Positions 5,712 through 20,867 of a DNA stretch of 64,000 nt are shown piece after piece. Source of the stretch: Candidatus Amesbacteria bacterium (lineage in GTDB: Bacteria > Patescibacteriota > Microgenomatia > CAZETR01 > Amesbacteraceae); NCBI GenBank assembly GCA_963736875.1, contig CAVTQH010000002.1:270663-334662 (forward strand), written 5' to 3'. The notes under the pieces were generated by a model that was not told the origin of the DNA, did not search any database, and saw only the letters and a list, made by a program, of their open reading frames with translations. Numbering within the stretch: position 1 is the first letter of the stretch; each line of letters starts with the position of its first letter. Position numbers and translations under genes: made by a program.

Positions 5712-5936
5712 TTACTTAGTCTTCATCTGTTCAGGCTGTAAATTACACACTACTTCAATAATGCTGGGAATATTGGGATTGTTAGTAAAAAAAACCATGG
5801 TACGGTTTTGTATAGTATACATTGCTGCCCTGCGAGCTGCACTTTCGGGAGTCTCCAACGACGGCTGCATCATAATTCCCAACTCTGGTCTATTAGGATT
5901 TTCATAACAAAACCACCATTTTAATCTGTCTTTCAT
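5712..5936 (-). CDS. Hypothetical small protein
   Basis: 74-aa ORF filling an intergenic gap. No recognisable motif. Confidence 0.25.
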   Translation of the reverse strand: MKDRLKWWFCYENPNRPELGIMMQPSLETPESAARRAAMYTIQNRTMVFFTNNPNIPSIIEVVCNLQPEQMKTK

Positions 5937-6027
5937 GGTATTTTCGCCATAATACCACTAAAGGCCTACTTTTTCTTTAATTGGCAGATGGATACGGAAA
6001 TGTCCGGTATAGGTATAATAAAAACTA

Positions 6028-7176
6028 ATGGGGTATCCTGAGAAGACAACAGAAAAAATTATTAAAGATAGCGGAATGGTTCAGGAGGTGAGAAGGAATG
6101 AAAACGTCAAAATACCATCGGTAGTGACATTTTGGGGAATCAGAACGGATTGTGCCGACATCAACCGGCAATTAGAAGGAATGCTTCCCGGTCAGCAAAT
6201 TTCCAGCCCGGGATTTGCATGCGTGTACCGGACCGCGCCGTTTTTAAGTCCGGATGAAGCCGTACGGCAGGAAATGGCTGCCGTCAAAACCAATTTAACG
6301 GCAATATTAGAAGTTCTGGATCCCGAAGATGGAAATCCCGAGGTGCTGAGTGTCGGTTGCGGAACCCCGCCGTTTGAACACTACGGTCAGGCAATTGCTG
6401 AAATGATCGGTTTGGGAGGAATCGAAGTATTGGAATCCAATCTGGCCTGCAATAGCGGAACCCGGGCAATGCAGCGGATACTCGAAGAACCCCGGTATGC
6501 GGGAAAGCGGGTAATGGTGATCGGGATAGAGGGAATGACCAGACTGATTGCCGATCCGAAACCGAATTTGGTAAAAGCCGACCCGTTTTCATTACAGGCA
6601 TTCGGAAACGGTATCGGAGCTGTTAGTTTTATCCCGGAAAGGGATATCAGCCTGGTTGGAAGCGTCAGTTTGTCCGAAGAGGATACCGAAAGGAATCTAG
6701 CTGCCAGACCGACTTATCAGGTAGATCCCAAAGGTCCGTTGATCCAAATTTCCGGAAGTATCGAAAAAACCAAACTTCCGATACCGGAAGAGGAAGAAAA
6801 AATAATCCATATTAAACCCACCGGGACAAGCAAAATGTTTATCAGGGCAGCTGAAGCCACGATAGACAGTCTCCTGACCGGTTACCGGGAACAAATTGAA
6901 GCCGGGACGGTACAGGATAAACCTATCAAACTTGTAGCGGCACATCATCCCAGCCGGGGTGTATGGGACATTCTAATAAAAAAACTGGCAAGAAAAGGGA
7001 TTCCGGCCGGATCCTGTCCGTGGATGGTTCCGGAAGGAAACTTAAGCGGAGCAACCTCTACAGTAGCCCTGTGCCGGTTGTTACCGGCTTTGTCACCCGG
7101 GGACAGAATTATCCTCCTGGGATATGGTGCCGGATGGAACTCCTCGGCAATGATCTGCGACATCGGGGGGAAATAG
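6028..7176 (+). CDS. Thiolase-fold condensing enzyme, divergent KAS III (FabH)/type III PKS-like
   Basis: 'LACNSGTRAM' is a candidate nucleophile Cys in an ACxSG context. 'AAHHPS' is a candidate His. 'GNLSGATS' resembles the FabH Asn in 'GNTSAAS'. About 380 aa. Confidence 0.5.
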   Translation: MGYPEKTTEKIIKDSGMVQEVRRNENVKIPSVVTFWGIRTDCADINRQLEGMLPGQQISSPGFACVYRTAPFLSPDEAVRQEMAAVKTNLTAILEVLDPEDGNPEVLSVGCGTPPFEHYGQAIAEMIGLGGIEVLESNLACNSGTRAMQRILEEPRYAGKRVMVIGIEGMTRLIADPKPNLVKADPFSLQAFGNGIGAVSFIPERDISLVGSVSLSEEDTERNLAARPTYQVDPKGPLIQISGSIEKTKLPIPEEEEKIIHIKPTGTSKMFIRAAEATIDSLLTGYREQIEAGTVQDKPIKLVAAHHPSRGVWDILIKKLARKGIPAGSCPWMVPEGNLSGATSTVALCRLLPALSPGDRIILLGYGAGWNSSAMICDIGGK

Positions 7177-7215: not shown

Positions 7216-7614
7216 ATGAATAATTCATATAATTGGTACTCTACACTTATTAAACCTTCATGGTCACCGCCAAGTTGGCTTTTTGGACCGGTGTGGACGT
7301 TTCTTTATATTTTGATTGCCATTTCTTTTGGAAAAGTGTTTTTGATGGGTTTGAAAAAAGAAATTGCTTTTATTGTTGTTTTGCCTTTTATTCTTAATCT
7401 TATTTTTAACTTTGCCTTTACTCCTTTACAGTTTGGATTAAAGAATAATTTATTTGCGGCAATTGATATTCTCCTTGTTTTGGGTACTCTTATCTGGTTG
7501 ATGATTGCTATATATCCTCATGCCAAGTGGATTACATATATTCAAATTCCATATTTACTTTGGGTTTCTTTTGCAAGCATTTTGCAGTTAACTATTACCT
7601 ATTTAAATAAATAA
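7216..7614 (+). CDS. tspO: TspO/MBR family tryptophan-rich sensory protein (short form)
   Basis: 'KPSWSPPSWLFGPVWTFLYILIAIS' is the TspO signature. Five TM helices. Confidence 0.7.
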   Translation: MNNSYNWYSTLIKPSWSPPSWLFGPVWTFLYILIAISFGKVFLMGLKKEIAFIVVLPFILNLIFNFAFTPLQFGLKNNLFAAIDILLVLGTLIWLMIAIYPHAKWITYIQIPYLLWVSFASILQLTITYLNK

Positions 7615-8806: not shown

Positions 8807-9287
8807 CGACAAAATGCAGAGTGATTACGCTTACACCCTGACTGAACCGATTGGTAAAAACTTTGATCCCGGATTTACGCCTGAACTCAGTCCTCAGCAG
8901 ATGCTGTCTCTCGGAGTTTTTGGCGGCAAATACTTAACTGATTGCACTAACGAGTTTCCGAAAAGTTGGTTTACTACCGCTAAACTCTCTCCGAAACAAT
9001 CCAATCCGAAGCTTAATTATTTCAGTGTTCCTGCCAGTCAGTCTCTCTCGGAATGGCGTCGAAAGGGTTGGATTCATCCCGATGACCCCCGTGGATGGTT
9101 TCAGTGGTATTGCCGATACTATATGGGCAGACGGCATGAAGATGACAGCAGACAAATTAAACGTTGGCGTGCGATCAGGCGTCATGTGAGTCAAATTATT
9201 AATAACTGTATGCCTTATGACGAAAGCTGTCGCAGGAAACAACGCCAGGCTCTCCTGCATTGGGCATATGACAGCCGGAAAATATAG
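8779..9287 (+). CDS. Hypothetical protein with W/R-rich motif '[23 protein letters not shown]' (ORF could start at 8676)
   Basis: Open frame of 169-203 aa. No family recognised. Confidence 0.4.
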
Positions 9288-9405
9288 AACTTGAATTTTT
9301 TCATCATTTATCAATTATTTTTTGGAACTCTCTTTCATTTGTTTGCTGGGAGTTTGCCTGCCCGCTTTTGCAGGGAAACGATATTAGAACTTTATAACAT
9401 CAATT

Positions 9406-9843
9406 CTAAAATTTCCCTTGTTTGACTAACTTGATTGACGAAGGACCTTTTTGAATTTTAAGGATTAAATTATCACCTTTTAAAGCATCTTTGACTCTTT
9501 CTAATTGTTTTGAAGAAATGTTATGAGGAATATTCATTAATTCAAAGTACTCTATTTTATCAGCCTCTTCGGTTAGAGTAATTTTTCCACCGATCGGTTC
9601 ACAAATAAAACAAAAGACAAGGTCGTCTTTCTCCGGTTTATAATAAATTCCCTGTAATCTGACAATTTTGACATCCAAACATACTTCTTCTTTAACTTCC
9701 CTGATAACCCCTTCCCAAGGTGATTCGCCTTTTTTCACGCCGCCTCCCGGCAAATTCCATAGGTCATAATCTCTCCTATGACACAAAAGCACCCTGCTTT
9801 GCTTATCAAGTATTATTGCGAAGGCCCCAACAGTAAACATCAT
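9406..9843 (-). CDS. NUDIX hydrolase
   Basis: Nudix box 'GGGVKKGESPWEGVIREVKEEVCL'. Confidence 0.8.
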   Translation of the reverse strand: MMFTVGAFAIILDKQSRVLLCHRRDYDLWNLPGGGVKKGESPWEGVIREVKEEVCLDVKIVRLQGIYYKPEKDDLVFCFICEPIGGKITLTEEADKIEYFELMNIPHNISSKQLERVKDALKGDNLILKIQKGPSSIKLVKQGKF

Positions 9844-9862
9844 CCTATTTTAACAAAATCTT

Positions 9863-9895
9863 TATCTGAGCGTACAGGTCTGGAACCATTCTGCC
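9863..9895. repeat. Intergenic repeat copy a (TTGCTGAGC-N-CTGGAACCATTCTATCC family)
   Basis: 'atctgagcgtacaggtctggaaccattctgcc', 20 nt upstream of the NUDIX start. Matches copies b-f. Confidence 0.6.
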
Positions 9896-10018
9896 GTACC
9901 ATTTTAATCCTAAACCTGTCGAAGGACGGAAGTCACTATTTTAGGGATTATTATCAACGGGTTCTCTTTAGCATCTTTTGCTTAGAAGTTCTGCGTTAAT
10001 TGACTTAGACGGAAGAGT

Positions 10019-11137
10019 ATGGTTACAATGGGCTTGGTGGCAAAAAGAAGTGGAAGAGTAATATCTCACGTTAACTTTCTCGTTTTTTCTTTAGTTGTGT
10101 TAGTTGGTGGGCTCGTAGCCAGCACAATCTTGGTAAGTAAAAATCAACAGCTAAATAGTCAGGCACAGGATGTTACAAGGCTTACCAACGCTGTTTGGTG
10201 GCAGTATTTACCAGTCAAATATAATTCAGCGTGTTCTTACCCAGACAAACCTGCCCCCGATAATTATCAGGCTGTTCATCCCTCCGTACTTTACTTTCCC
10301 GGAGGGTGGAAGGGATATAAATTTTGGATGTCTGTATCTCCTTTTCCTAATCTTGACCCAAAGTGTGAACACCCTCATGTATTTGCCTCCAATACAGGAA
10401 GATACAAAGATTGGATTCAGCCGACAGGTAATCCTGTAGTTCCTAGTGTAGATCCCTACGCTTACGAATACAGCGATGCAGATCTGGTGATGGTCGGGGA
10501 TAAAATGTATATGTTCTATCGTAAAAACACCAAAAACGGACCGGGATATGAAGACGATGACACCGAGTTGTATAAAATATCCCTTTGTTCAACATGTAAT
10601 AGTTGGAGCCCCCCCGAGGCTGTTAAACTTACTAATGTACCTGGGGATCCAATTACTACTGATGCTTATAAAGTTAAACCTAGCGGAATATTTGCCTCTC
10701 CTTCCATTTTGTATGAGAATAATGTCTGGAGAATGTATTATGTCGATACGAAAGCCAAGATAGTAAGATATGCGTCTAGTAGCGATGGGAAAGAGTTCAC
10801 GTGGCAGAGGAACATTTCCGTGAATTATTACCCGCAAGATCCTTGGCACGTCGAAGTCTTCAAGTATAAAACCAGGTACTTTATGCTACTAAACCAGAAC
10901 ATAGAAACAACCAACTCGAATTTGTATCTGCTTACAAACGATAATACGGCAAGTTGGACCAATAAGGGGCCGATATTGTCGCCATCGGCGAATGCATGGG
11001 ATAAATCGGATATTTATCGAGCGTCAGCAGTTGTAGTAGATAATCAATTAATGTTGTGGTATTCGGGTTTTATAGGAAATAATGTGCACACTGGCCTCAT
11101 CAACGACTCCACATGGAATAATTGGTGGTACCGCTAA
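10019..11137 (+). CDS. Secreted beta-propeller glycoside-hydrolase-like protein (GH43/GH32/GH130 superfamily-like)
   Basis: N-terminal TM anchor. Repeated blade-like segments such as 'WRMYYVD' and 'DKSDIYRASAVVVDNQLMLWYSG'. Flanked by repeat copies a and b and opposite in strand to the array. Confidence 0.45.
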   Translation: MVTMGLVAKRSGRVISHVNFLVFSLVVLVGGLVASTILVSKNQQLNSQAQDVTRLTNAVWWQYLPVKYNSACSYPDKPAPDNYQAVHPSVLYFPGGWKGYKFWMSVSPFPNLDPKCEHPHVFASNTGRYKDWIQPTGNPVVPSVDPYAYEYSDADLVMVGDKMYMFYRKNTKNGPGYEDDDTELYKISLCSTCNSWSPPEAVKLTNVPGDPITTDAYKVKPSGIFASPSILYENNVWRMYYVDTKAKIVRYASSSDGKEFTWQRNISVNYYPQDPWHVEVFKYKTRYFMLLNQNIETTNSNLYLLTNDNTASWTNKGPILSPSANAWDKSDIYRASAVVVDNQLMLWYSGFIGNNVHTGLINDSTWNNWWYR

Positions 11138-11186
11138 GAATGTAAATTACAGGTCCGCGAAAAACTGAAGGGGTTGCGAATAAAAT

Positions 11187-11220
11187 TTGCTGAGCATACC
11201 GCTCTAGAACCATTCTATCC
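11187..11220. repeat. Intergenic repeat copy b
   Basis: 'ttgctgagcataccgctctagaaccattctatcc', 105 nt 3' of the methyltransferase stop. Confidence 0.65.
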
Positions 11221-11329
11221 TTTAGTCCGCAGGACGTGAATCTAACGATTGTCTCACAACAAGGCCAAACCTACCTACCGGCAGGCAGGTGAGACAAATG
11301 AGATGATACTAGAAGTAAACAGTGTAGAT

Positions 11330-12097
11330 CTACAATTTTCGACATTTAAAAATGAACCTATCTGAAAAATTAATAAAAAAGGGAAGTTTGCTTAAACAGA
11401 ATGAATTCTTATCTCCGTTCCTATTTATTCTAACTCCGTTACCCATGACTTTAATATCACTGTAGCCGGCGTATTTTAGAGTTGTCAGAAGCGAATGAAT
11501 AGAAAAAAAAGAAATATGCCCCGATGCGACATCCGTTAACGGGCGCGTGGTTTGATAAGACTCTCCCATGCCTGTTAAAAGCCCGATAACGTCATGAATT
11601 TGAGCAATATTTGGAACTGACCCCAGAAAATATCCACCATGCTTGATTAAAGGATTTATGACCTTTTTAATAAATACCCCAGGGGTTCTGATATGTTCCA
11701 GAATTTCAGCTGCAACAACAAAATCGGCTTTTGGAAGTTTATCAATTTTATCCAGGTCTTTTTCAACGTCCACTGAGATGACTCTATCAAAACACTGCCT
11801 GTCTAATCCAACCTGCAACACCTCCAAAGAAACATCGATTCCAATTTTATATAAATTCGCCAAAGATTTAACTTGATTTTCCAATTCACCCTCTCCGCAA
11901 CCTAAATTAATCATTATCATTTTTTTGTTTATGCTTTTATCAACAATTTCTCGAATAATTTCAGAAATAAGCGTAAGCCTCTTTTTATGAAGTTTGTTAT
12001 CGAGATAACTATATACTTTATTGTTTTGTTTTTTGAATAATATTGCCTCGAAATGTTTTTCAGGCTGTCCATAAACTTCGGGTTTTATGATTGACAT
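11330..12097 (-). CDS. Class I SAM-dependent methyltransferase
   Basis: Motif I 'MINLGCGEGELE'. Post-I acidic residue. 'AAEILEHI' motif. Confidence 0.75.
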   Translation of the reverse strand: MSIIKPEVYGQPEKHFEAILFKKQNNKVYSYLDNKLHKKRLTLISEIIREIVDKSINKKMIMINLGCGEGELENQVKSLANLYKIGIDVSLEVLQVGLDRQCFDRVISVDVEKDLDKIDKLPKADFVVAAEILEHIRTPGVFIKKVINPLIKHGGYFLGSVPNIAQIHDVIGLLTGMGESYQTTRPLTDVASGHISFFSIHSLLTTLKYAGYSDIKVMGNGVRINRNGDKNSFCLSKLPFFINFSDRFIFKCRKL

Positions 12098-12281
12098 AAA
12101 ATTATTGTTCAGTAGCTCAACTAACCAGTCGTAACCATACCAAAAGGTAGAGATAAATTTGATATCTATTATATATATCTTTCCTATTTTTTCTGGGGGA
12201 CTAGTTGTCTTTCGCTAAGTTTAGGATCACCACGGAACACGACCACATAATGGCATGCAATTCCGAAAGCTTGGCGAAGGA

Positions 12282-12315
12282 TTGCTGAGCAGTACGATCT
12301 GGAACCATTTTATCC
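12282..12315. repeat. Intergenic repeat copy c
   Basis: 'ttgctgagcagtacgatctggaaccattttatcc', directly abutting the ASCH-gene stop codon (TAA on minus). Confidence 0.65.
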
Positions 12316-12657
12316 TTATATTCTTTTCTCAACTTCTATTGCTACTACACCATACTGTTTTTCTTGTTCAGGAGTATAGAATTGTCTATACACTCTAATT
12401 CCTTGATAAATTGAATCTACGTCCGGTAATAACTCTTTAATAGATTCACTGGTTAGCATGTCTTTAATCGATTTATATATTGTTACCCTTTTTACTACGG
12501 TCTCTACACTATCTGTTTCTTTGTTATCATAAACGGTAATTTGATCTCCAGGCTTGATATTGCGATACTTACCTTTTCTTATCCTTGCCTCGACAGTTTT
12601 CTGCCCATTCTTAAGTAAGGTGAAATACGGTTCTGCTCTATGATTGTGGTAATTCAT
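12316..12657 (-). CDS. ASCH (PUA-like) domain protein
   Basis: 'PYFTLLKNGQKTVEARIRKGKY' matches the ASCH N-terminal motif. 113 aa. Confidence 0.6.
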   Translation of the reverse strand: MNYHNHRAEPYFTLLKNGQKTVEARIRKGKYRNIKPGDQITVYDNKETDSVETVVKRVTIYKSIKDMLTSESIKELLPDVDSIYQGIRVYRQFYTPEQEKQYGVVAIEVEKRI

Positions 12658-12662
12658 AAAAG

Positions 12663-12696
12663 TTGCTGAGCGGGCCGGTCTGGGACCCTCCTATCC
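12663..12696. repeat. Intergenic repeat copy d
   Basis: 'ttgctgagcgggccggtctgggaccctcctatcc' occupies the entire 39-nt spacer between the GNAT stop and the ASCH start. Confidence 0.65.
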
Positions 12697-13134
12697 TTAT
12701 AGTTTCTTAATAAAATATGATTTTTCTCCCTCAGTTTTATATTCAGTGAAACCGTTATCTAAAACAAATTTATACATACCTGGGAATTTTACTTTGTAAG
12801 TATTTAGAGTCAGTTGATCAAACATTTTCTCCTTTGCAAATTTTTCTATTTCCTCATACATCATTTTCCAAATTCCAAACTTCCGATATTCTTTTAATAC
12901 CCCAACATTCCAAATATGAAATTTCCCTTCTTTTGGATAACAGATAGAAAATCCCACCATCTTTTTGTCATCCCAGGCATTAACTAACAAACCGCCGCTA
13001 TTTATCTTATTCAACCAATCATTTTTGTCGTGATATTTTTGGAGCTCTTCTGGAGACGGCTCAAATACTTGATTTGACACTTCTAAAGCTTTTTCTAACT
13101 CTTTTAGTTGGTTTATGTGTAATGTGATATTCAT
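12697..13134 (-). CDS. GNAT family N-acetyltransferase (longer ORF to 13161 overlaps the repeat; start at MNITLH preferred)
   Basis: Motif A 'VGVLKEYRKFGIWKMMYEEIEKFAKE'. Confidence 0.7.
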   Translation of the reverse strand: MNITLHINQLKELEKALEVSNQVFEPSPEELQKYHDKNDWLNKINSGGLLVNAWDDKKMVGFSICYPKEGKFHIWNVGVLKEYRKFGIWKMMYEEIEKFAKEKMFDQLTLNTYKVKFPGMYKFVLDNGFTEYKTEGEKSYFIKKL

Positions 13135-13168
13135 CTGCTGAACATGTCGGTCTTGAACCATTCGATCC
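13135..13168. repeat. Intergenic repeat copy e
   Basis: 'ctgctgaacatgtcggtcttgaaccattcgatcc', between the LOG-like stop and the GNAT start. Confidence 0.65.
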
Positions 13169-13176
13169 CATAACCT

Positions 13177-13710
13177 CTACAAATATTTCTCAAGTTCTCT
13201 AATAGAATTAAAAAACTCTATTTTGGATTTTTCCTTGTGTCCTTCTTTTAGAAATTCCTTAATTGTTTTATTAGTAATCCCACCAGATGCTTCTAAAACA
13301 TAAATGTCTTTAGCGATGCCAGCCATAATCGTTATTTCGTACATAGTACCAACTCGTCCACCAATAACAATTGCCATATCGACATCAAAACATAGTTTCA
13401 GAGATCGGAGGTATAGATCAATTTTAGAAAAATTGTTACAGACGTATTTTTCTTGGAAAATTACCTCTGAGTATTTAGATAAATCTGTTTGGTAAAATTT
13501 CTTGTGATCTTCAAGATTTTTACCCGCACAGTAGGCTATAGCTTTGCCGCCTGAAGAAATGGCTGAGACGGCAACTAAGTCCGGGTAACCAGAAACACCC
13601 CCAGTAACGATGATGTGTCCTTTTAAAGCAAGTAATCTACCTAATTCTTGAGATTTTTTAAAAAAATCTCCATTGTCAGGATTACTTGATCCGATGATGG
13701 CTATTTTCAT
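13177..13710 (-). CDS. LOG/TIGR00725-family Rossmann protein (SLOG-like; lysine-decarboxylase-like)
   Basis: 'IAIIGSS' N-terminus and 'IGGRVGTMYEI', corresponding to LOG 'GGxGTxxE'. Confidence 0.6.
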   Translation of the reverse strand: MKIAIIGSSNPDNGDFFKKSQELGRLLALKGHIIVTGGVSGYPDLVAVSAISSGGKAIAYCAGKNLEDHKKFYQTDLSKYSEVIFQEKYVCNNFSKIDLYLRSLKLCFDVDMAIVIGGRVGTMYEITIMAGIAKDIYVLEASGGITNKTIKEFLKEGHKEKSKIEFFNSIRELEKYL

Positions 13711-13730
13711 AAATTTAATTATAGTTTAAT

Positions 13731-13764
13731 TTGCTGAGCACCACAGCCTCGAACCGTTCTAGCC
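13731..13764. repeat. Intergenic repeat copy f
   Basis: 'ttgctgagcaccacagcctcgaaccgttctagcc', 20 nt upstream of the LOG-like start and 50 nt past the MazG-like stop. A degenerate seventh copy may lie at ~14228-14260. Confidence 0.6.
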
Positions 13765-13814
13765 CATAACTAATTTAATATACGGATCAAGGATTTTTCC
13801 ACTTTGACTATTTA

Positions 13815-14168
13815 TTAAACTCCCTTAGTGCGAAGGTATTCGCTGGCGTCTCTTAAGGCTTTGAAGTGGGCGTCTTCCAAATCAATCTCGTACAAATCTG
13901 CAATTCGCATGACCATAAATAAAATATCAGCTAATTCATCCCCAATTTTTTCTTTGTTTGCCTGATATTTAGGATTGTCTTTGTCTCGACATGCAGGGTA
14001 ATAACCCTCTTGCACCATCACCAATGAAGAAAGATCACCAATCTGCTTACTTAGTTCAATCATCGACCCATCCACACCCCATTGCTTACCTTCTATTTTT
14101 TCGAACCTTTTAATTATCGCTCTTGCCTTATTAACCGCTTCCTCAAATGTAGTTTTATTCATATTCAT
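13815..14168 (-). CDS. MazG-like nucleotide pyrophosphohydrolase (all-alpha NTP-PPase)
   Basis: 'EKIGDELADILFMVMRIADLYEIDLE' is the typical EExxE/D metal-binding helix pair of the MazG/HisE family. Confidence 0.7.
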   Translation of the reverse strand: MNMNKTTFEEAVNKARAIIKRFEKIEGKQWGVDGSMIELSKQIGDLSSLVMVQEGYYPACRDKDNPKYQANKEKIGDELADILFMVMRIADLYEIDLEDAHFKALRDASEYLRTKGV

Positions 14169-14367: not shown

Positions 14368-15042
14368 ATGTCTAACGTTAATTATGGAAATAGGGGGTTG
14401 CTTATCGCAGTAGAGGGTGTTGATGGTGCCGGTAAATCAACTTTGATCAAAGCTTTAAGCAGTCACTTACAGAGTAAGGGGATATCAAACGCAGTATTTA
14501 AGAATCATGTTGGGTTAGAATCACCATTTTGGGCATCATATAAAAAAAGCAGGGAACAACTTAAAAATAATGGGGTTAAAATTTCAAGCGATGCAGCAAG
14601 AACTATACAAACTGCTGAATTTTTGTCATTTGCCAGAAACGTTTTACCGGGATTGTTGAGCACTCATAGAGTTGTTCTTGCAGATAGATACATGGTAGCT
14701 AAAAGAGTTGATTCCCGGGTAAGCCTAGAAGGTAATGTCGGTTCTGCAGAAATATTACTTAATGTAGCCGACGATATTTATTTACCGGATCAGATTTTTT
14801 ACCTTAGAGTTCCGGCAAAAACAGCCTGGAAAAGAATATCGAATAAAGAAATAAAAGACTGGAAAGAGAATTATGAAATTATTTCAAAAGCAGTGGTTTA
14901 TTATGACCAAATTGTTTCAACAATTCCTGACGTGGAAATTATAAACGCAGATAAAGATGAAAAAAACGTTTTTAATGTAGCTATTACTGTTTTTTGGGAC
15001 AAGTTTTCTCGCCAGTTAGAGATTATGAAAAAGACTCTCTAG
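14368..15042 (+). CDS. Thymidylate-kinase-like (dNMP kinase family) P-loop protein, divergent
   Basis: P-loop 'IAVEGVDGAGKSTL' and 'VLADRYMVA' (Tmk DRY motif). The lid region is atypical. Confidence 0.55.
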   Translation: MSNVNYGNRGLLIAVEGVDGAGKSTLIKALSSHLQSKGISNAVFKNHVGLESPFWASYKKSREQLKNNGVKISSDAARTIQTAEFLSFARNVLPGLLSTHRVVLADRYMVAKRVDSRVSLEGNVGSAEILLNVADDIYLPDQIFYLRVPAKTAWKRISNKEIKDWKENYEIISKAVVYYDQIVSTIPDVEIINADKDEKNVFNVAITVFWDKFSRQLEIMKKTL

Positions 15043-15687
15043 GGTCAGGTTGTCTTTAATACTGATTCGAGACAGCCTCTTACTTTTCGCATAATAACTC
15101 AAAAACAAATCCGAATTTGGGGTGTCTCTTAACTGAAGTGCGGTCAATAGCCGCATCTTTTCCCTAGGCAGAATCGTTTTAAAATTCTCGAGAAAATAGC
15201 TTTTTAGGTATAGTAACGATTGGACTCCGTTAGCATAGTCTTGCTTAAATAATCGAACACTGTAAGTTGCGAGTATATTCTCTAAGCTGAAATATCGTTT
15301 ATAGACTTCTCTTATATCATATTCGAATTGTTGATATATGACATGATCATTTCTGACAAGAAAAGGAAAAATGTCTACGAAATATTCTCCACCCGGTCCT
15401 AAAAAGTTATTCGGATTGGAATCCAATCCGTATTTATCAAACGTTAATGATTTAATTCGGTTTACAATGTGTCCTGAAAATAAGATTGGTTTTTCAGCAA
15501 TTCGTTCCTGATTTATGACAATGTATCCGTCTTGGAAAGTTAGGTCTGTTTGAGGTGTTCGAAAACCTGCAGTTTCTAACCATTTAAAATAATATGGTAA
15601 ATGTACAGATATATATTTAAATAAATATTTTGTGGCCTCAACCTTTTTTACAAATCTATTTTTATTGACTGAAACATCACACCTCAT
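15016..15687 (-). CDS. Hypothetical protein, last gene of the 4-gene overlapping operon
   Basis: 223 aa. Start overlaps the nucleotidyltransferase stop by 4 nt. No motif recognised. Confidence 0.4.
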   Translation of the reverse strand: MRCDVSVNKNRFVKKVEATKYLFKYISVHLPYYFKWLETAGFRTPQTDLTFQDGYIVINQERIAEKPILFSGHIVNRIKSLTFDKYGLDSNPNNFLGPGGEYFVDIFPFLVRNDHVIYQQFEYDIREVYKRYFSLENILATYSVRLFKQDYANGVQSLLYLKSYFLENFKTILPREKMRLLTALQLRDTPNSDLFLSYYAKSKRLSRISIKDNLTLESLFHNL

Positions 15688-16706
15688 AGTAAATCAATAG
15701 GAATTAAGTAATGATCGTTGTTTTGCATAAATAGAAAATCACCATGATTGACTGTTACCTTAGTGCCTCTGAATAAGTATGTATTTCCAAACACGTGGTT
15801 ATCATCACCCATCCCTTGATGCGCCCATGAGAAGCTAATAGCATTCAGGTGCTTATCACCCATAACAAGATCCCATGTTTTTGGGAAATTATAACAATCA
15901 GCTGCCGATAGTACCTGGCATTCACTCACAACTTCTTCAATTTTCCAATCCTGATGCATACCACTAAGGAAGTCTCTTATAGGGGTATCGTTATGGTCGA
16001 TGTTTAAACATTGTAAGCTTGTAGATACACCTTCCGGACTGATCCACCTCATTCTTTTGTTAGCAAGGTACCGGCCGGCTAGAACGGGGATGTTGAACTT
16101 TCTGGAATAATGAACAGCGTATTCAGCGTCTTTACCCGTCTCTTTTGTAGTCACGTACCCGCTACTAATAAAGGTTTCATTTACAAGATCCAAAAAGTCC
16201 GTCTTTTGTGTTGGTTTAACCCAAGCGATCAAATCCAAATCCGAGTCGACCGAATTCAATCCCGCTTGGTGAGAACCATAAACTCCAAGGTTGTAGTCTC
16301 CTGCAAAATCAGCCTTCAATAATTTTTCTTTAATACCGTTGGCTAATCGTTTAGAGGCGGAAGAAATAGCGGTATTGGATTCATAGTAAGTTGAATACCA
16401 TACATATTCCTGATTGTCTTGTAGAAACAAGAGAGGCTTATTGTAAACATCAATAAGTAATTCGCCGATTTCAACAAAACTATTTCGTGACACGTCCTCG
16501 TGAATCAGTCTGTTTCGTCGGTATATTTTACGGTCAATACCCGATACACGATTTCCGTTCTCATCAAGGGAATAACTCCGGTTTACGGGTAGAATTGATC
16601 CTTGTTGTGTATGCAATCTGTAGGCACCTTTAAGATGGTAAATGTTTCCGTTAGGGGATTTTATGGCAGAAAACTCTGGAAAAGGTGAAATCTCATACTC
16701 CGTCAT
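15684..16706 (-). CDS. Pol-beta superfamily nucleotidyltransferase (ANT/KNTase/MenT/CD-NTase-like) with large C-terminal domain
   Basis: 'GVYGSHQAGLNSVDSDLDLIAW' fits the GS-x9-11-DxD minimal nucleotidyltransferase motif. 340 aa. Overlaps both neighbours. Confidence 0.6.
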   Translation of the reverse strand: MTEYEISPFPEFSAIKSPNGNIYHLKGAYRLHTQQGSILPVNRSYSLDENGNRVSGIDRKIYRRNRLIHEDVSRNSFVEIGELLIDVYNKPLLFLQDNQEYVWYSTYYESNTAISSASKRLANGIKEKLLKADFAGDYNLGVYGSHQAGLNSVDSDLDLIAWVKPTQKTDFLDLVNETFISSGYVTTKETGKDAEYAVHYSRKFNIPVLAGRYLANKRMRWISPEGVSTSLQCLNIDHNDTPIRDFLSGMHQDWKIEEVVSECQVLSAADCYNFPKTWDLVMGDKHLNAISFSWAHQGMGDDNHVFGNTYLFRGTKVTVNHGDFLFMQNNDHYLIPIDLL

Positions 16707-17665
16707 ATTACGATTCTTCTCCCCAAATAATGGGGCAGAATCAATTGATATTCTTCGTCTTTAAAAAACAATTTGAAAAGATAGTTACTATCTTCTCCAT
16801 CAACATTTATAGGAGAAATATGTTGCAAAATTACTTGTTTGACTTGAGATTTTTTGAAAATATCTAATATATCCCATCCACTGAGATGATATTTTGAGTG
16901 CTTGTTGTATTCCAGTGCATTAATGTTCACGACGGCTAAATCTGCATTCTTAAAGAAATCTGCAATGTATTGGTGTTTTTCTTCTATTGATATTAAGTTA
17001 CCAATTGTCTCGTTAGAGTTGAAAACTCCTGTGTCGGTTTTGATTTTAATTGCGTATCCCGAATCGGATACATAACCTATAATCTTTTTGTTTACTTCTA
17101 ATTTAAAGCCAAATGTATCAGGACAACTGTGAAATAGTGATAAGAAACTAATCTTGTACTCACTTAGGATTTTATCGTTATAAACCATCTGTGAATCGGA
17201 AAGTAAATTCAATGTAACATGCTTGGCATTAGAAAGAGCTGTTTTATAGTAATCCGGAACTTTAGTATCGAAAGCGTCCTTGGAACTAAATACTGTAATT
17301 TCTTTCGATTTATTTTTTAGAATTTTTTCTAAAAAGATTTGTAGAGAAGCAGTATGGTCAATGTGATTATGAGTTATTATCAGCACCCGGATATCGTTAA
17401 CGGATAAACCTGTTGATGTAAACCTGGAATAGAAATCAACCCCGGGATCGACTACTATAAGTTTTCCTTTTAAATTTATGATGTAACCATTGAAATACCA
17501 TTGATCAATTTGCAGTTCAAGCGAAGTTTCAAATAATAATTTAGGTATTATTATTTCGTGTCCGGATATTTTCTCCGTTATCTTCCCAGACTTAAAAGAT
17601 TCCTTTAAAATCTGCTCTTTCTTATACAAACCCCTTGAAATTATGATTAAATTATTCTTGTCCAT
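16703..17665 (-). CDS. Metallo-beta-lactamase-fold hydrolase
   Basis: 'LIITHNHIDH' (HxHxDH), upstream 'VVDPG' Asp and downstream His/Asp motifs. 320 aa. Confidence 0.65.
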   Translation of the reverse strand: MDKNNLIIISRGLYKKEQILKESFKSGKITEKISGHEIIIPKLLFETSLELQIDQWYFNGYIINLKGKLIVVDPGVDFYSRFTSTGLSVNDIRVLIITHNHIDHTASLQIFLEKILKNKSKEITVFSSKDAFDTKVPDYYKTALSNAKHVTLNLLSDSQMVYNDKILSEYKISFLSLFHSCPDTFGFKLEVNKKIIGYVSDSGYAIKIKTDTGVFNSNETIGNLISIEEKHQYIADFFKNADLAVVNINALEYNKHSKYHLSGWDILDIFKKSQVKQVILQHISPINVDGEDSNYLFKLFFKDEEYQLILPHYLGRRIVI

Positions 17666-18254
17666 TATTCTCCAACTTCTTAGTTAAAAGGTAATCCAAG
17701 TGTAACACAACATTCCTATAAGTATTACTTATTTTAGCCTCATTATTTATTAGTATATATTTTTTATTAGCCTCGTATGTAATGTGTTTCAATTTATTAA
17801 TTGTTAGGACCCGATTAAAGTGGGTTTTTGATTTATTCCCTCTTTTTATAGCCAGAGATGGTTTGATTTCAAGAATTACTCCCCCAAGCACCTTAGGATT
17901 GTTAAACAATCTGTGGGTATTCACCTGGACACCGTCGATTATGATATTAACCCCGGAATTGGTATATGAATTTATAATAATTTCTATTAACCCCATAAAT
18001 ATATCAGACGATTTCTTTCCTTCAAAATTTTCTAATTCTGTTGAGTTAATATCCGGTCGAAAAAAACGCACCATTTTACTTGCCACTCCCAAGTTAATTG
18101 ACTGATAGAAGTTATAATCACGAATTAATTTTCTCGTGATGGTCGTTTTTCCTGAGGAATTATTTCCTGTTACAACGAAGATAGCCGGTTTACCTAGTCT
18201 ATTAAGTTGTTTAATCTTTCCGTTGATATTTATCACCAATGACCATTTTATCAC
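17652..18254 (-). CDS. P-loop kinase, chloramphenicol-phosphotransferase/zeta-toxin/AAA_33-like (GTG start)
   Basis: Walker A 'VVTGNNSSGKTTITRKL'. 'NIIIDGV' Walker-B-like strand. About 200 aa. First gene of the overlapping operon. Confidence 0.55.
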   Translation of the reverse strand: MIKWSLVININGKIKQLNRLGKPAIFVVTGNNSSGKTTITRKLIRDYNFYQSINLGVASKMVRFFRPDINSTELENFEGKKSSDIFMGLIEIIINSYTNSGVNIIIDGVQVNTHRLFNNPKVLGGVILEIKPSLAIKRGNKSKTHFNRVLTINKLKHITYEANKKYILINNEAKISNTYRNVVLHLDYLLTKKLENNGQE

Positions 18255-18496
18255 AAGACCTATAGTTCGTCTAGAGTTTCTATATCCTCACCCACCCGGA
18301 ATTAAATTTGTGGCGACGACCCCATCCTCGTTCGCAGGGTTCCCTAGGGGGACCCTCGCCAAAGTCCGGGACGATCTAGGTTCTTTTTACAATCCCTTCC
18401 GGAGTAATGGGTAGTTTAGTTAGTCAGCTCCCTGCGGCGGGGTGTCCGCTTTCCACCCCCGCCTTCTTTATTCTTGCCCCATCCAGTACCCTACGG
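18255..18496 (-). ncRNA. GC-rich structured non-coding region between tRNA-Gln and the kinase operon (candidate leader/riboswitch/sRNA; identity unknown)
   Basis: About 60 % GC, flanked by ~33 % GC genes. Strong hairpins 'GGCGGGGGTGgaaagcggaCACCCCGCC' and 'AGGGTCCCCCTAGGGAACCCT'. No ORF. Confidence 0.2.
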
Positions 18497-18567
18497 CTGG
18501 GGGACAGGGATTCGAACCCCGATAGTCAGGTCCAGAACCTGAAGTCCTACCGTTAGACGATCCCCCA
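18497..18567 (-). tRNA. tRNA-Gln (anticodon CUG)
   Basis: Minus-strand cloverleaf: acceptor UGGGGGA/UCCCCCA (U1:A72 as in tRNA-Gln), anticodon loop UUCUGGA, T-arm CGGGGUUCGAAUCCCUG. No encoded CCA. Confidence 0.8.
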
Positions 18568-18642: not shown

Positions 18643-19695
18643 TTAACCCGTAAGCTTTGGTATCCAGGGAATTTTATGTACCAGGAAGGCAACAGAAAAC
18701 GAAATAACTGCTGTTAATCCGAAAAACAACGGATCAAACCAAACCTGGGTAACCGTCAGGGCAGGGGAGCCGGAGAACAGATATTTACTAAAAAGTTTCC
18801 ATATGATTTCCAGCACCCACACATGTACAAAAAATACAAAAAATGACCTGCCTGACAATCTTGTCAGAATATTTTCTTTGGTTTTTAAATTGGTAAACCA
18901 ATAATATCCGCCGGCAAACAGAGCCAGCGTGTAGACCGCAATACTCGGCCTCCATTGGGAATAAAAATCGACATAATTCCAGGAAGTCAGATACCGGCTG
19001 CGTCCTTCATAGAATATATAACCGGCCAATACAGCAGTAATTACCGGCCAGATATATTTTAAGCGGCGGACCAAAGTCAAAATCCGGTCTGTCTGGTGGC
19101 AGGCCACCATCCCCAGCACAAAAAATAAATAATTTAATACAGTGATTCTTAACGGATCCGGCATCACAATGGCATGCCGGTAATAATCGGCATACAGAAG
19201 TCCCGCTTCCGCTCCGGCTAAAATTACCAGTACCCACCATTTGGATATCCATCTGTAGAACTTATGCAGCAGGGGAAATATCAGATAAAGAAGCAGAAGC
19301 GGGGGAATAAAATACAGCTGATACGAGGAATTGCCTCCGATTAAAGTCTGCATAAACCCCATATCATGTTGGGTATAGACAAAATGATAATAGATTAAGC
19401 TCCAGAAGACGTACGGTATAAGAATTTTACCGGTGCGTTTTTTCAGATAGGTAAAATATCCGGTTCCGTCCCGGTGGGAAAGTTCCAGCACAAAACCGGA
19501 AATCAGAAAGAACAGCGGGACTGCAAACCGGCAGACCTGATTTAAAAAAAGCGACAGAGGGACTTCCGGCAGGTTCATATATACCGACTCGATGGTTCTG
19601 CTGGTGGTATGGATAAGGATAACCGCGAGGATTGCGGCAGTTCTTAATGCATCCATTGCTATGTCCCTGCCCGGCAATAATATTTCCTTCACCAT
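18643..19695 (-). CDS. Acyltransferase family 3 (OatA-like) membrane protein
   Basis: 'MDALRTAAILAVILIHTTS' N-terminus typical of PF01757. Ten TM helices. Confidence 0.75.
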   Translation of the reverse strand: MVKEILLPGRDIAMDALRTAAILAVILIHTTSRTIESVYMNLPEVPLSLFLNQVCRFAVPLFFLISGFVLELSHRDGTGYFTYLKKRTGKILIPYVFWSLIYYHFVYTQHDMGFMQTLIGGNSSYQLYFIPPLLLLYLIFPLLHKFYRWISKWWVLVILAGAEAGLLYADYYRHAIVMPDPLRITVLNYLFFVLGMVACHQTDRILTLVRRLKYIWPVITAVLAGYIFYEGRSRYLTSWNYVDFYSQWRPSIAVYTLALFAGGYYWFTNLKTKENILTRLSGRSFFVFFVHVWVLEIIWKLFSKYLFSGSPALTVTQVWFDPLFFGLTAVISFSVAFLVHKIPWIPKLTG

Positions 19696-19762: not shown

Positions 19763-20380
19763 ATGAATAAAAAACTTGGTTTGATAATCGTCGCAGTCAT
19801 CCTGATAGCTCTGGGTTTGGGCGGATTTCTTTTATTAAGTAAAGGCGGTAAAACCGCTCCCGTTACTTCCGGGACTACCCCGGAGCCTTCATCTTCCGCA
19901 CAAAAAATGTCTTTAAGGTCGCTGCTTTCATTCACCGGCAGTCAAATGTGTAATTTTTCAGACATTGAGTCCACCACCAGTGGTCAAATCTATATGTCCG
20001 CCGGCCGGGTCCGGGGTGATTTTTCCACCATAGTCGAAGGAAATGTAGTCAAATCTCATATGTATACCGACGGTCGGGAAATGTACTTCTGGATGGACGG
20101 AAGCGCCTCCGGTTTTAAAAGCAGCCTGACCGTTACTCCGTCACCGGAAGCCGGAAAACCTGCAAACGAAAATGTCGATCTGGACCGCCAGTCGGATTTT
20201 GATTGCGGTCCCTGGACTGCGGATGACTCCCTGTTTGTTTTACCGGACGGGGTAAAATTCTCGGATCTAAGTACTCTGATGGCAGTCCCTACGGGTGGTC
20301 AGGCATCCCCCTGCCAGACTTGTGACCAATTGACCGGTGATACGGCAGTCCAATGTAAGAAGGCACTCAATTGCCCGTAG
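19763..20380 (+). CDS. Hypothetical secreted/membrane-anchored Cys-containing protein (ORF extends to 19592 but ATG at 19763 gives a signal anchor)
   Basis: 'MNKKLGLIIVAVILIALGLGGFLLL' anchor. Four C-terminal Cys residues. Confidence 0.45.
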   Translation: MNKKLGLIIVAVILIALGLGGFLLLSKGGKTAPVTSGTTPEPSSSAQKMSLRSLLSFTGSQMCNFSDIESTTSGQIYMSAGRVRGDFSTIVEGNVVKSHMYTDGREMYFWMDGSASGFKSSLTVTPSPEAGKPANENVDLDRQSDFDCGPWTADDSLFVLPDGVKFSDLSTLMAVPTGGQASPCQTCDQLTGDTAVQCKKALNCP

Positions 20381-20399
20381 CGGTATACTTAAGATAGTG

Positions 20400-20867
20400 G
20401 TGAAGTGGAAAGAATTAAGTCTAAGTCTTATTCTTTGTCTGGGAGCCGGGATTATCGGCTCGGTATTTACCGCCCCGGCAATTACCTCCTGGTATGCTTT
20501 CCTGAATAAACCGTTTTTTAATCCCCCGAATTGGATTTTTGGGCCGGTTTGGACACTTCTCTATATTCTGATGGGCATTTCCCTTTATTTGGTTCTTATT
20601 TCCAAGTCAAAAACAAATGGCTATCACCAGGCACTGCAGCTTTTTGCTATCCAGCTGGTTTTCAACATTCTCTGGTCGGTGATCTTTTTTGGTCTGAGAA
20701 ATCTTCTGGCTGCATTTTTGGAAATAATTATTCTCTGGATTGCCATTTTACTGACCTGGCAAAAATTCGGAAAAATATCCCGGACCGCTGCCAACCTGCT
20801 TATTCCCTATATTGCCTGGGTCAGCTTTGCCCTCTTGCTCAATCTGGCAATCGTAATTTTAAACTAA
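20400..20867 (+). CDS. tspO: TspO/MBR family protein, second paralogue (GTG start; ORF in track from 20337)
   Basis: 'NKPFFNPPNWIFGPVWTLLYILMGISLY' matches the TspO signature. Confidence 0.65.
   Translation: MKWKELSLSLILCLGAGIIGSVFTAPAITSWYAFLNKPFFNPPNWIFGPVWTLLYILMGISLYLVLISKSKTNGYHQALQLFAIQLVFNILWSVIFFGLRNLLAAFLEIIILWIAILLTWQKFGKISRTAANLLIPYIAWVSFALLLNLAIVILN

Follow-up and report, generated by a model that had tools for sequence, protein, structure and literature searches.

Do four overlapping genes in the genome of an uncultured bacterium form a unit with a function of its own, and what might that function be? The question is raised by a stretch of 64,000 nt from a Candidatus Amesbacteria contig (GenBank CAVTQH010000002.1, positions 270,663–334,662; hereafter the window), which carries at 15016–18254, on the minus strand, a cassette of four genes that we call K, M, N and O. 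Their predicted products are a P-loop kinase, a metallo-β-lactamase (MBL)-fold hydrolase, a Pol-β-superfamily nucleotidyltransferase and a minimal protein-kinase-like (PKL) protein, respectively. An earlier note, made from the letters of this DNA alone, had described four minus-strand genes overlapping by 4–14 nt, and the overlaps are as it said: the stop and start codons of K/M, M/N and N/O overlap by 14, 4 and 4 nt, and the view that the four genes are a translationally coupled operon is supported. The motifs it quoted are also present (VVTGNNSSGKTT in the kinase, THNHIDH in M and GS-x10-DLD in N), and its kinase, MBL and nucleotidyltransferase assignments hold at the level of superfamilies.

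Homologues of N are rare, with just 28 clusters among 5.8 billion, all of them metagenomic or from metagenome-assembled genomes; the named sources are Candidatus Amesbacteria, Candidatus Woesebacteria and ‘Patescibacteria group’. We gathered loci through the encoding contigs and by pattern scans, and searched their six-frame open reading frames (ORFs) with hidden Markov models (HMMs) built for each family. Collapsing duplicates left 15 independent loci, all metagenomic and, wherever a source is named, from Patescibacteria. K and N co-occur in every one of them, M is found in 13 and O in 10, and each locus has either O or a sulfotransferase-like protein, S. Ten loci have the arrangement K-M-N-O (window/L018, L001/6, L002/3/7, L009/10, L011, L012, L022, L023, L024 and L026), three have S followed by K-M-N (L004, L019/20 and L025), and two have S followed by K-N (L005/8 and L021). 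Gene order is fixed and the 4–14 nt overlaps are mostly kept among loci whose N proteins are as little as ~31% identical to that of the window. The flanks vary from locus to locus, and include DnaG-RpoD-tRNA-Asn with IS3 fragments, AlaRS with MnmA, and alpha-amylases with RarA. Since the same genes, in the same order and with mostly the same overlaps, are found in 15 loci with different flanks, the arrangement is not due to chance. The earlier note had proposed looking for the kinase-MBL-nucleotidyltransferase triad in other gene neighbourhoods, and recurrent co-occurrence of the triad across the 15 loci is what we observed. We conclude that the cassette is a real, recurrent and undescribed conserved module.

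The claim that the set matches no named system also stands. A PADLOC scan, which the note had suggested, gave no significant system match for the cassette; PHROGs gave generic matches only, and no NCBIfam cut-off was reached, such that the four proteins have no system-level or equivalog match in these three libraries. A description of this gene combination was not found in the literature. The G+C content of the cassette is below that of its flanks in 12 of the 15 loci, by 7–11 points in five, and a tRNA gene lies within 250 nt in three (the window and L002, both Gln-CUG, and L023, Asn). Scans of viral contigs with the N and O profiles returned no relatives, so a phage origin is unsupported.

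The AlphaFold2 (AF2) model of N is confident (predicted local distance difference test score (pLDDT) 94.8; predicted template-modelling score 0.91) and has three parts: a β-rich N-terminal domain (residues ~1–105), a central Pol-β core (~116–250) and a C-terminal β-barrel (~255–336). The quoted motif reads G144 S145 ... D156 L D158. With hG[GS]-x9-13-Dh[DE]h on a helix-strand-strand core, together with the fold, N belongs to the Pol-β nucleotidyltransferase superfamily. It does not have the 250-residue C-terminal extension that had been ascribed to it; instead, the core is central, between an N-terminal domain of ~110 residues and a C-terminal barrel of ~90. The top Foldseek matches are mostly RNA 3′-tailing enzymes (CutA, PAP, Tailor, Cid1, GLD-2, TUT1 and TUT7), joined by one CD-NTase and by proteins with oligonucleotide/oligosaccharide-binding (OB) folds (LEF-3, HIN and LysRS). 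When PDB sequences are searched with an N profile, Cid1, PAP, TUT, GLD-2 and Trf4 rank first (best E 0.014), and overall three methods place the core nearest to RNA 3′-terminal transferases. The β-barrels match SSB, RPA, HIN and the anticodon-binding OB folds of LysRS and AspRS. Residues invariant in the family include G-S...S-D-x-D, and the flanking domains have conserved motifs of their own (PVNRSY, YNFPxxW and HQGMG). No PDB entry shares the whole architecture. N represents a new family of OB-flanked, TENT-like nucleotidyltransferases with a confident structure model.

M matches Pfam Lactamase_B_2 (PF12706) with 47.9 bits against a cut-off of 27. The residues H99, H101, D103, H104, H179, D201, H256, H260 and H282 are invariant; they comprise all metal ligands of the binuclear site plus two further histidines, H256 and H260. 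With the HxHxDH motif, the downstream His, Asp and His ligands and the Pfam domain, M is a bona fide MBL-superfamily enzyme. The closest curated models are RNase Z TIGR02651 (E 1.7e-15) and PhnP, both far under their cut-offs. Because these are its nearest curated families, we read M as a probable phosphodiesterase. M does not qualify as RNase Z proper (TIGR02651, 56.9 bits versus 292.95; NF000801, 48.1 versus 252), nor as the anti-Pycsar protein Apyc1 (PF23023, 15.1 bits versus a gathering score of 50). Matches to Apyc1 in the PDB (E 0.002–0.005) are confined to the HxHxDH region, and other PDB matches are generic.

K has the Walker A sequence GNNSSGKT (pattern GxNxxGKT) in a nucleoside monophosphate kinase layout. 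Its family invariants are Q51, N54, K60, D68, E75 and R138, a DGVQ motif on a strand, and an R...THFxR lid. All Pfam matches are sub-threshold (CPT, Zeta_toxin and AAA_18); CPT PF07931 reaches 20.2 bits versus a cut-off of 22, and seven of eight family members match AAA_18. A PDB sequence search with the K profile gave weak or generic matches, mainly to adenylate and thymidylate kinases. These features assign K to the P-loop kinases at superfamily level. The family is basic, with a median isoelectric point (pI) of 9.1. K was rejected as a Zeta/PezT toxin kinase: PF06414 gives 15.8 bits versus 22.3, and where zeta has its catalytic Asp, ~21 residues past the Walker Lys, K has N-L-G-x-x-S-K and no Asp (the position was judged by eye).

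O had been described as a 223-residue orphan. The window protein has no match in any HMM library scanned (Pfam, PADLOC, NCBIfam and PHROGs), and an exhaustive HMMER search found only ~35 representatives, nearly all of ~220 residues; a third homologue search, with a 31-sequence profile, did not reach a wider family. Thirteen of the 31 family members have a weak match to Pfam DUF6206, of which no description was found in the literature. The fold of O is nonetheless recognisable from the AF2 model (pLDDT 95) and its motifs: it is a minimal protein-kinase-like fold nearest to Bud32, choline kinase and APH, with Bud32 as the top structural neighbour. Bud32 is the tRNA-dependent kinase/ATPase of KEOPS. 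Invariant in O are K14, on strand two of the N-lobe; D89-x4-N94, in a catalytic loop that a short strand follows; and D105, in an F-V-D-F motif past the next strand, equivalent to a DFG-like Asp. The bilobal fold, N-lobe Lys, D-x4-N loop and metal-binding Asp of the model are those expected of a PKL superfamily member. Since the invariant residues sit where PKL catalysis needs them, activity as a phosphotransferase, or as an ATPase in the manner of Bud32, is very probable for O. Neither a PDB sequence search with the O profile nor an hhalign comparison of that profile with an approximate APH(3′)-IIa sequence gave a match, and the PKL assignment is therefore one of structure and motifs. One protein matched by the O profile, P0062 (1156 aa), is a repeat protein and was discarded as spurious. 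Few kinase-like proteins whose catalytic set is intact are as small as O, which constitutes a new family with a confident model.

Clustering the neighbouring ORFs of all loci showed that the five loci without O all carry S, a conserved protein of ~285 residues encoded directly upstream of K and divergently transcribed. S of L005 matches Sulfotransfer_5 with 24.4 bits (cut-off 23.2), and S of L019 matches Sulfotransfer_1 with 21.7 bits (cut-off 22). We read its invariant motifs, PRSxSTxLGR and R-D-P-x-x-Q-x-x-S, as resembling the 5′-phosphosulfate and 3′-phosphate binding loops for 3′-phosphoadenosine 5′-phosphosulfate (PAPS). O and S are mutually exclusive among the 15 loci. However, the loci with S form one clade on the N tree, so the exclusivity probably reflects one replacement event and is not strong statistical evidence. 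The fourth gene shows signs of decay or rearrangement in three cases: O is frameshifted in the Amesbacteria locus L001/L006 (O at 9020–9690), S is split in L004 (5470–6323), and in L012 an insertion of 1.2 kb (5899–7108) separates N from O, which lies 1.2 kb downstream. The other cassette genes, K, M and N, are undamaged in each case.

In the two loci that lack M (L005/8 and L021), a convergent operon lies next to N. It abuts the 3′ end of N at 9049–12304 of L005 and 5081–8261 of L021 (minus strand), and is partly present in L004 (9237–10267). It encodes a weakly assigned 2H/LigT-like phosphoesterase (E 3e-4), a 470-residue protein, a TauD-family iron- and 2-oxoglutarate-dependent dioxygenase that is nearest to TmpA, TMLD and BBOX, and an HD-like DUF4202 protein. 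The 2H/LigT-like and HD folds are classic folds of RNA 3′-end healing. In L019 (224–2310) and L025 (89–2245; minus strand), S is in an operon with an adenylate-kinase-like P-loop protein (176–179 aa) and a His_Phos_1 histidine phosphatase nearest to the alpha-ribazole phosphatase CobC. We set aside the idea that K and N are analogues of APS kinase and ATP sulfurylase that feed S, since K and N occur without S in 10 of the 15 loci. The logic common to all variants is an invariant K+N pair, a putative phosphodiesterase, and an enzyme that would add an anionic group, phosphate or sulfate, to an acceptor. The swap of a kinase for a sulfotransferase-like enzyme constrains the possible chemistry.

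What could such a set of enzymes do? It is established that the four genes are tightly coupled and recurrently inherited together, and which folds and catalytic motifs they encode. Building on this, our best reading, proposed tentatively, is that the cassette is a module for healing and re-extending the ends of RNA, plausibly tRNA; we regard this as possible rather than probable. Several observations point to this reading: the recurrent and ordered co-occurrence of the genes, with conserved overlaps of stops and starts in varying flanks; the position of the N core, nearest to RNA tailing enzymes by three methods; the OB-like β-barrels that N carries; the proximity of M to RNase Z and PhnP, with its metal ligands invariant, and the 2H and HD folds found where M is absent; the basic character of K; Bud32 as the top structural neighbour of O; and the tRNA genes close to three of the 15 loci. 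There is also a precedent: RlaP, another Pol-β nucleotidyltransferase and one encoded in RNA-repair operons, extends the damaged 3′ ends of RNA by 1–2 nucleotides (PMC12776372). The earlier note had offered nucleic-acid end processing as one of two hypotheses, and it is modestly favoured by the similarity of the N core to RNA 3′-terminal transferases and of M to RNase Z and PhnP.

We infer what the enzymes act on, in which sequence they work and what they are for. M, as a binuclear-metal phosphodiesterase, would trim a damaged 3′ end, or would open or remove a 2′,3′-cyclic phosphate or 3′-phosphate. K might phosphorylate the 5′-OH end, or might supply or charge a nucleotide. N would hold the RNA end by its OB-like barrels while the TENT-like Pol-β core adds one or a few nucleotides to the 3′-OH. 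O could phosphorylate either the substrate once more or a partner protein, or could regulate a partner, with S providing an anionic mark in the sister clade. The purpose may be repair after damage by ribotoxins, or quality control of RNA ends. If the substrate is RNA, the cassette would be a ligase-independent bacterial pathway of RNA end repair or tailing built around a eukaryote-like terminal transferase core. A more specific version, in which ends are healed, rebuilt and then marked, would have the RNA end protected or tagged by phosphorylation (O) in place of Hen1-type 2′-O-methylation, and by sulfation (S) in the sister clade. We consider this version a long shot. If true, RNA would here bear, for the first time, a protective mark made of enzymatically added sulfate or installed by a kinase, and the system would rely on a new nucleotidyltransferase family, OB-TENT-OB in architecture and restricted to Patescibacteria.

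A number of points weigh against the RNA-end reading. The similarities of the N core are all weak (E no better than 0.005; TM about 0.2), and structures of Pol X and CD-NTase enzymes score nearly as high. By alignment and secondary structure, no third conserved carboxylate is seen after DxD in N, the expected strands carrying R218, R220, S230 and Q232; the invariant E82 of the N-terminal domain might substitute for it. The N family is acidic (median pI 5.5, net charge about −11), each barrel also having a negative overall charge, and such strong acidity is unusual for an enzyme that binds polynucleotides. The best Pfam matches of K are small-molecule kinases (CPT and zeta toxin). The 2H assignment is weak and comes from two related loci. 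RNA ligase, RtcB, Hen1 and archease are absent from all 15 loci. Finally, we know of no precedent in nucleic-acid systems for a swap from kinase to sulfotransferase, and the exchange of O for S looks more like small-molecule or glycan tailoring.

The cassette might instead modify a cationic small molecule or an envelope component, such as an antibiotic or metabolite, for resistance or tailoring, a reading that we consider rather unlikely. O or S would phosphorylate or sulfate a hydroxyl, N would nucleotidylylate, K would phosphorylate in the manner of CPT, and M would remove a nucleotidyl or phosphodiester group. The strong acidity of N and the exchange of O for a sulfotransferase-like enzyme in one clade are in keeping with this, and they keep alive the small-molecule inactivation that was the other hypothesis of the earlier note. 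However, no curated resistance model (APH, ANT, CPT or bla) reaches its cut-off, and identification of the proteins as APH, ANT or CPT resistance enzymes was rejected: CPT falls short as given above, there is no APH or ANT match in Pfam, and no NCBIfam resistance model is matched. Moreover, three parallel group-transfer enzymes would be redundant for one drug, whereas genes so coupled and fixed in order suggest a pathway or complex; the nearest families of M are phosphodiesterases and not drug hydrolases; and N has a core closer to TENTs than to ANT/Lnu by three methods, and is without the helical C-terminal domain of the ANT/Lnu enzymes.

Alternatively, the product could be a nucleotide only, either a signal or a modified nucleotide, that the cassette makes, modifies and turns over. 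N would condense nucleoside triphosphates as CD-NTases and OAS do, K together with O or S would phosphorylate or sulfate a ribose hydroxyl by a PAPS-like logic, and M or the 2H enzyme would hydrolyse a phosphodiester. We consider this, too, rather unlikely. Among the clustered neighbours, none that is conserved alongside the cassette is an effector or sensor gene, no CD-NTase, CBASS or Pycsar model is matched in PADLOC, and the Apyc1 score of M is far under its cut-off. The structural similarity of N to DncV/Cdn is confined to the shared core, and the OB-like barrels have no counterpart in CD-NTases. The nucleotide enzymes found beside the cassette in the window are not kept beyond its closest relative. 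Identification as CBASS was likewise rejected, there being no Cdn or CBASS match in PADLOC and no conserved effector-like neighbour. A small-molecule or nucleotide substrate, if true, would make the cassette a new pathway, for modification or signalling, of an uncultured phylum, and any substrate other than RNA would place the cassette further from anything described.

A toxin-antitoxin or abortive-infection system is very doubtful. N would be a toxin like MenT or AbiEii that nucleotidylylates tRNA acceptor ends, kept in check by covalent modification (by K, O or S) and by M trimming the added nucleotides. There are known cases of a kinase antitoxin that neutralises an NTase toxin (MenT3/TglT with TakA), and the invariant core of the cassette is a tightly coupled two-gene K+N pair. 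The rare and patchy distribution, the G+C content below the flanks in 12 of 15 loci, the insertion sequence (IS) fragments beside L023 and the nearby tRNA genes would also fit. By contrast, PADLOC matches to AbiE, MenT and other NTase defence families are no better than noise; for the AbiE/MenT NTases, a candidate we rejected, there is only a noise-level PDC-S09 match (E 0.004–0.05) over ~40 residues of the GS...DxD region. With 340 residues and two extra domains, N is unlike MenT or AbiEii, and all four proteins are conserved and enzyme-like, not fast-evolving like an antitoxin. The frameshift of O in L001, where K, M and N are intact, argues against O as an essential antitoxin. The defence role that had been suggested for the module has no direct support, with no PADLOC match, viral relatives, anti-defence context or effector gene found. 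Housekeeping nucleotide salvage seems unlikely for a family so rare and patchy.

Was the cassette acquired as an island? Its G+C content is 34.7%, compared with 44.9% for the rest of the window, and it lies at the edge of a low-G+C block of ~11 kb (roughly 7.2–18.3 kb), with a tRNA-Gln(CUG) gene 240 nt upstream of K (Table 1). The low G+C and the adjacency to the tRNA, both claimed in the earlier note, are thus real. However, a classic tRNA-integrated island is not demonstrated: none of the ORFs scanned from 7 to 20 kb has an integrase-like domain, and no direct, att-type copy of the tRNA 3′ end was found. Two TspO/MBR paralogues bracket the low-G+C block, which may be a foreign segment with its own TspO/MBR copy. 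In L023, IS3-type transposase fragments (HTH_Tnp_1, rve and rve_2) lie directly downstream of the cassette at 9060–12779, and the tRNA-Asn gene is 154 nt upstream of K.

The start of K is ambiguous, as a public assembly of the same DNA begins the gene at a GTG that lies six codons farther downstream in the same frame, which gives a product of 194 residues. A promoter-like site with an extended −10 element, at 18273–18245, is just upstream of the annotated K start and overlaps it. Rfam, run on the whole window, gave no family match in the 240-nt spacer between the tRNA and K. A riboswitch or leader there was rejected, since the predicted folding does not surpass that of shuffled sequence (z = 0.27) and no Rfam family is present. 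The Tmk-like kinase gene beside the cassette had been described as divergent and with its own promoter; it is convergent with O, the 3′ ends overlapping by 27 nt, and the search for promoter-like sites gave none ahead of it on its own strand. It adjoins the cassette elsewhere only in the closest relative, L001/L006, and is probably outside the cassette core. Several small accessory genes, nucleotide- or RNA-centred, lie farther along in the low-G+C block, and only the Tmk-like gene recurs beside the cassette in the closest relative. An intergenic repeat of 36–46 nt, which reads AAGGATAGAATGGTTCCAGACCGGnnTGCTCAGCAA on the minus strand, is present in five copies, all in one orientation and all in the low-G+C block, with none inside the cassette. 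Four copies are at or just past the stop codons of single minus-strand genes (methyltransferase, ASCH, GNAT and MazG-like), and the fifth is upstream of the NUDIX gene. The repeat could be a regulator-binding, terminator-associated or cassette-boundary motif. An attC-like structure is unsupported, as no conserved hairpin was found.

Table 1 Positions in the window of the cassette genes and of features around them
Feature	Position	Strand	Remarks
K, P-loop NMP-kinase-fold phosphotransferase (predicted)	17652–18254	minus	200 aa; GTG start; first cassette gene
M, metallo-β-lactamase-fold hydrolase (predicted)	16703–17665	minus	320 aa; assigned to phosphodiesterase type
N, Pol-β-superfamily nucleotidyltransferase	15684–16706	minus	340 aa; new architecture
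O, minimal PKL phosphotransferase (very probable)	15016–15687	minus	223 aa
Spacer between K and tRNA-Gln	18255–18494	minus	Contains promoter-like site
tRNA-Gln(CUG)	18495–18567	minus	Same strand as cassette; ARAGORN and Rfam; insertion landmark or co-transcribed gene
Tmk-like gene	14368–15042	plus	Pfam Thymidylate_kin E 9.9e-15; PADLOC VakA E 7e-12
Accessory genes beside the cassette	9406–14168		NUDIX, S-adenosylmethionine (SAM) methyltransferase, ASCH, GNAT, SLOG/LOG (LDcluster4) and MazG-like pyrophosphatase; then the Tmk-like kinase
Intergenic repeat, five copies	9863–9908, 11187–11232, 12282–12327, 12663–12708, 13731–13776		
First TspO/MBR gene	7216–7614	plus	132 aa; ~30% GC; without N-terminal part of domain; opens low-GC block
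Second TspO/MBR gene	20337–20867	plus	176 aa; full length; normal-GC DNA past the tRNA
Acyl_transf_3 membrane acyltransferase gene	18643–19695	minus	Just upstream of tRNA-Gln, same strand; normal-GC DNA; marks apparent end of low-GC block

How does the cassette compare with systems already described? Its proteins belong to known superfamilies (Pol-β nucleotidyltransferases for N, MBL for M, PKL for O and P-loop kinases for K), whereas every specific family or system tested fails on a defining feature: RlaP/PF10127, Pnkp/Hen1, CD-NTase/CBASS, AbiE/MenT, RNase Z, Apyc1, APH/ANT/CPT and zeta toxin. Sets of antibiotic-modifying enzymes (APH, ANT and CPT) draw on the same three superfamilies, and the acidity of N is a further likeness. 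However, the cassette matches no curated resistance model, the architecture of N is unlike that of ANT/Lnu, and the cassette includes a putative phosphodiesterase and has a fixed, coupled gene order.

The individual proteins also depart from their nearest relatives. The atypical small PKL kinases are Bud32 (KEOPS), RIO, the choline kinase LicA, APH and WaaP; unlike these, O has no sequence-level membership in any Pfam kinase family, has an invariant N-terminal M-R in place of a glycine-rich loop, is very small, and is without a Kae1/KEOPS partner. M shares the HxHxDH motif and the His, Asp and His ligands with RNase Z/ElaC, PhnP and Apyc1, and has the extra conserved histidines between motifs IV and V. 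It differs from them in scoring far under every curated cut-off and in a 55-residue N-terminal extension with its own conserved residues, and the exosite of RNase Z was not identified in it. For the N core, the best matches by sequence and structure are in the TENT family (CutA, Cid1, Tailor, GLD-2, TUT1/4/7 and Trf4), with which it shares a helix followed by G-S, x10 and D-x-D (GS...GL...SD.DL). However, those weak alignments cover just ~120–135 residues, N has OB-like barrels on both sides where TENTs have a helical PAP-associated domain, no conserved third Asp was identified in it, and it is acidic and bacterial, from the candidate phyla radiation (CPR).

The RNA-repair operons, Pnkp/Hen1 and RtcB-RtcA with RlaP, offer a further comparison. 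Neither of two direct identifications could be upheld: N does not match the RlaP family PF10127 at E ≤ 0.1 and no ligase gene is present in the 15 loci, and of the components of Pnkp/Hen1 repair only the P-loop kinase has a counterpart, with no ligase or Hen1 domain in Pfam and NCBIfam scans. The ligase/adenylyltransferase domain, RtcB and the Hen1 methyltransferase are thus absent from every cassette locus; the phosphoesterase of the cassette has an MBL fold and not a calcineurin-like one; and the fourth enzyme would be a kinase or sulfotransferase, not a methyltransferase. The cassette is, moreover, known here from sequence and predicted folds. The likeness lies in the overall composition. 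In each, one operon encodes a P-loop kinase, a metal-dependent phosphoesterase and a nucleotidyl-transfer enzyme, alongside which comes a fourth, ‘marking’ enzyme (Hen1 in the repair operons, O or S in the cassette), and RlaP shows that a Pol-β nucleotidyltransferase can rebuild lost 3′ nucleotides on damaged RNA (PMC12776372). CPR genomes are small and rich in unannotated genes, and in them the cassette turns four hypothetical proteins into a defined unit. Set beside these systems, the combination is new, and so are two of the protein families that make it up, N and O.

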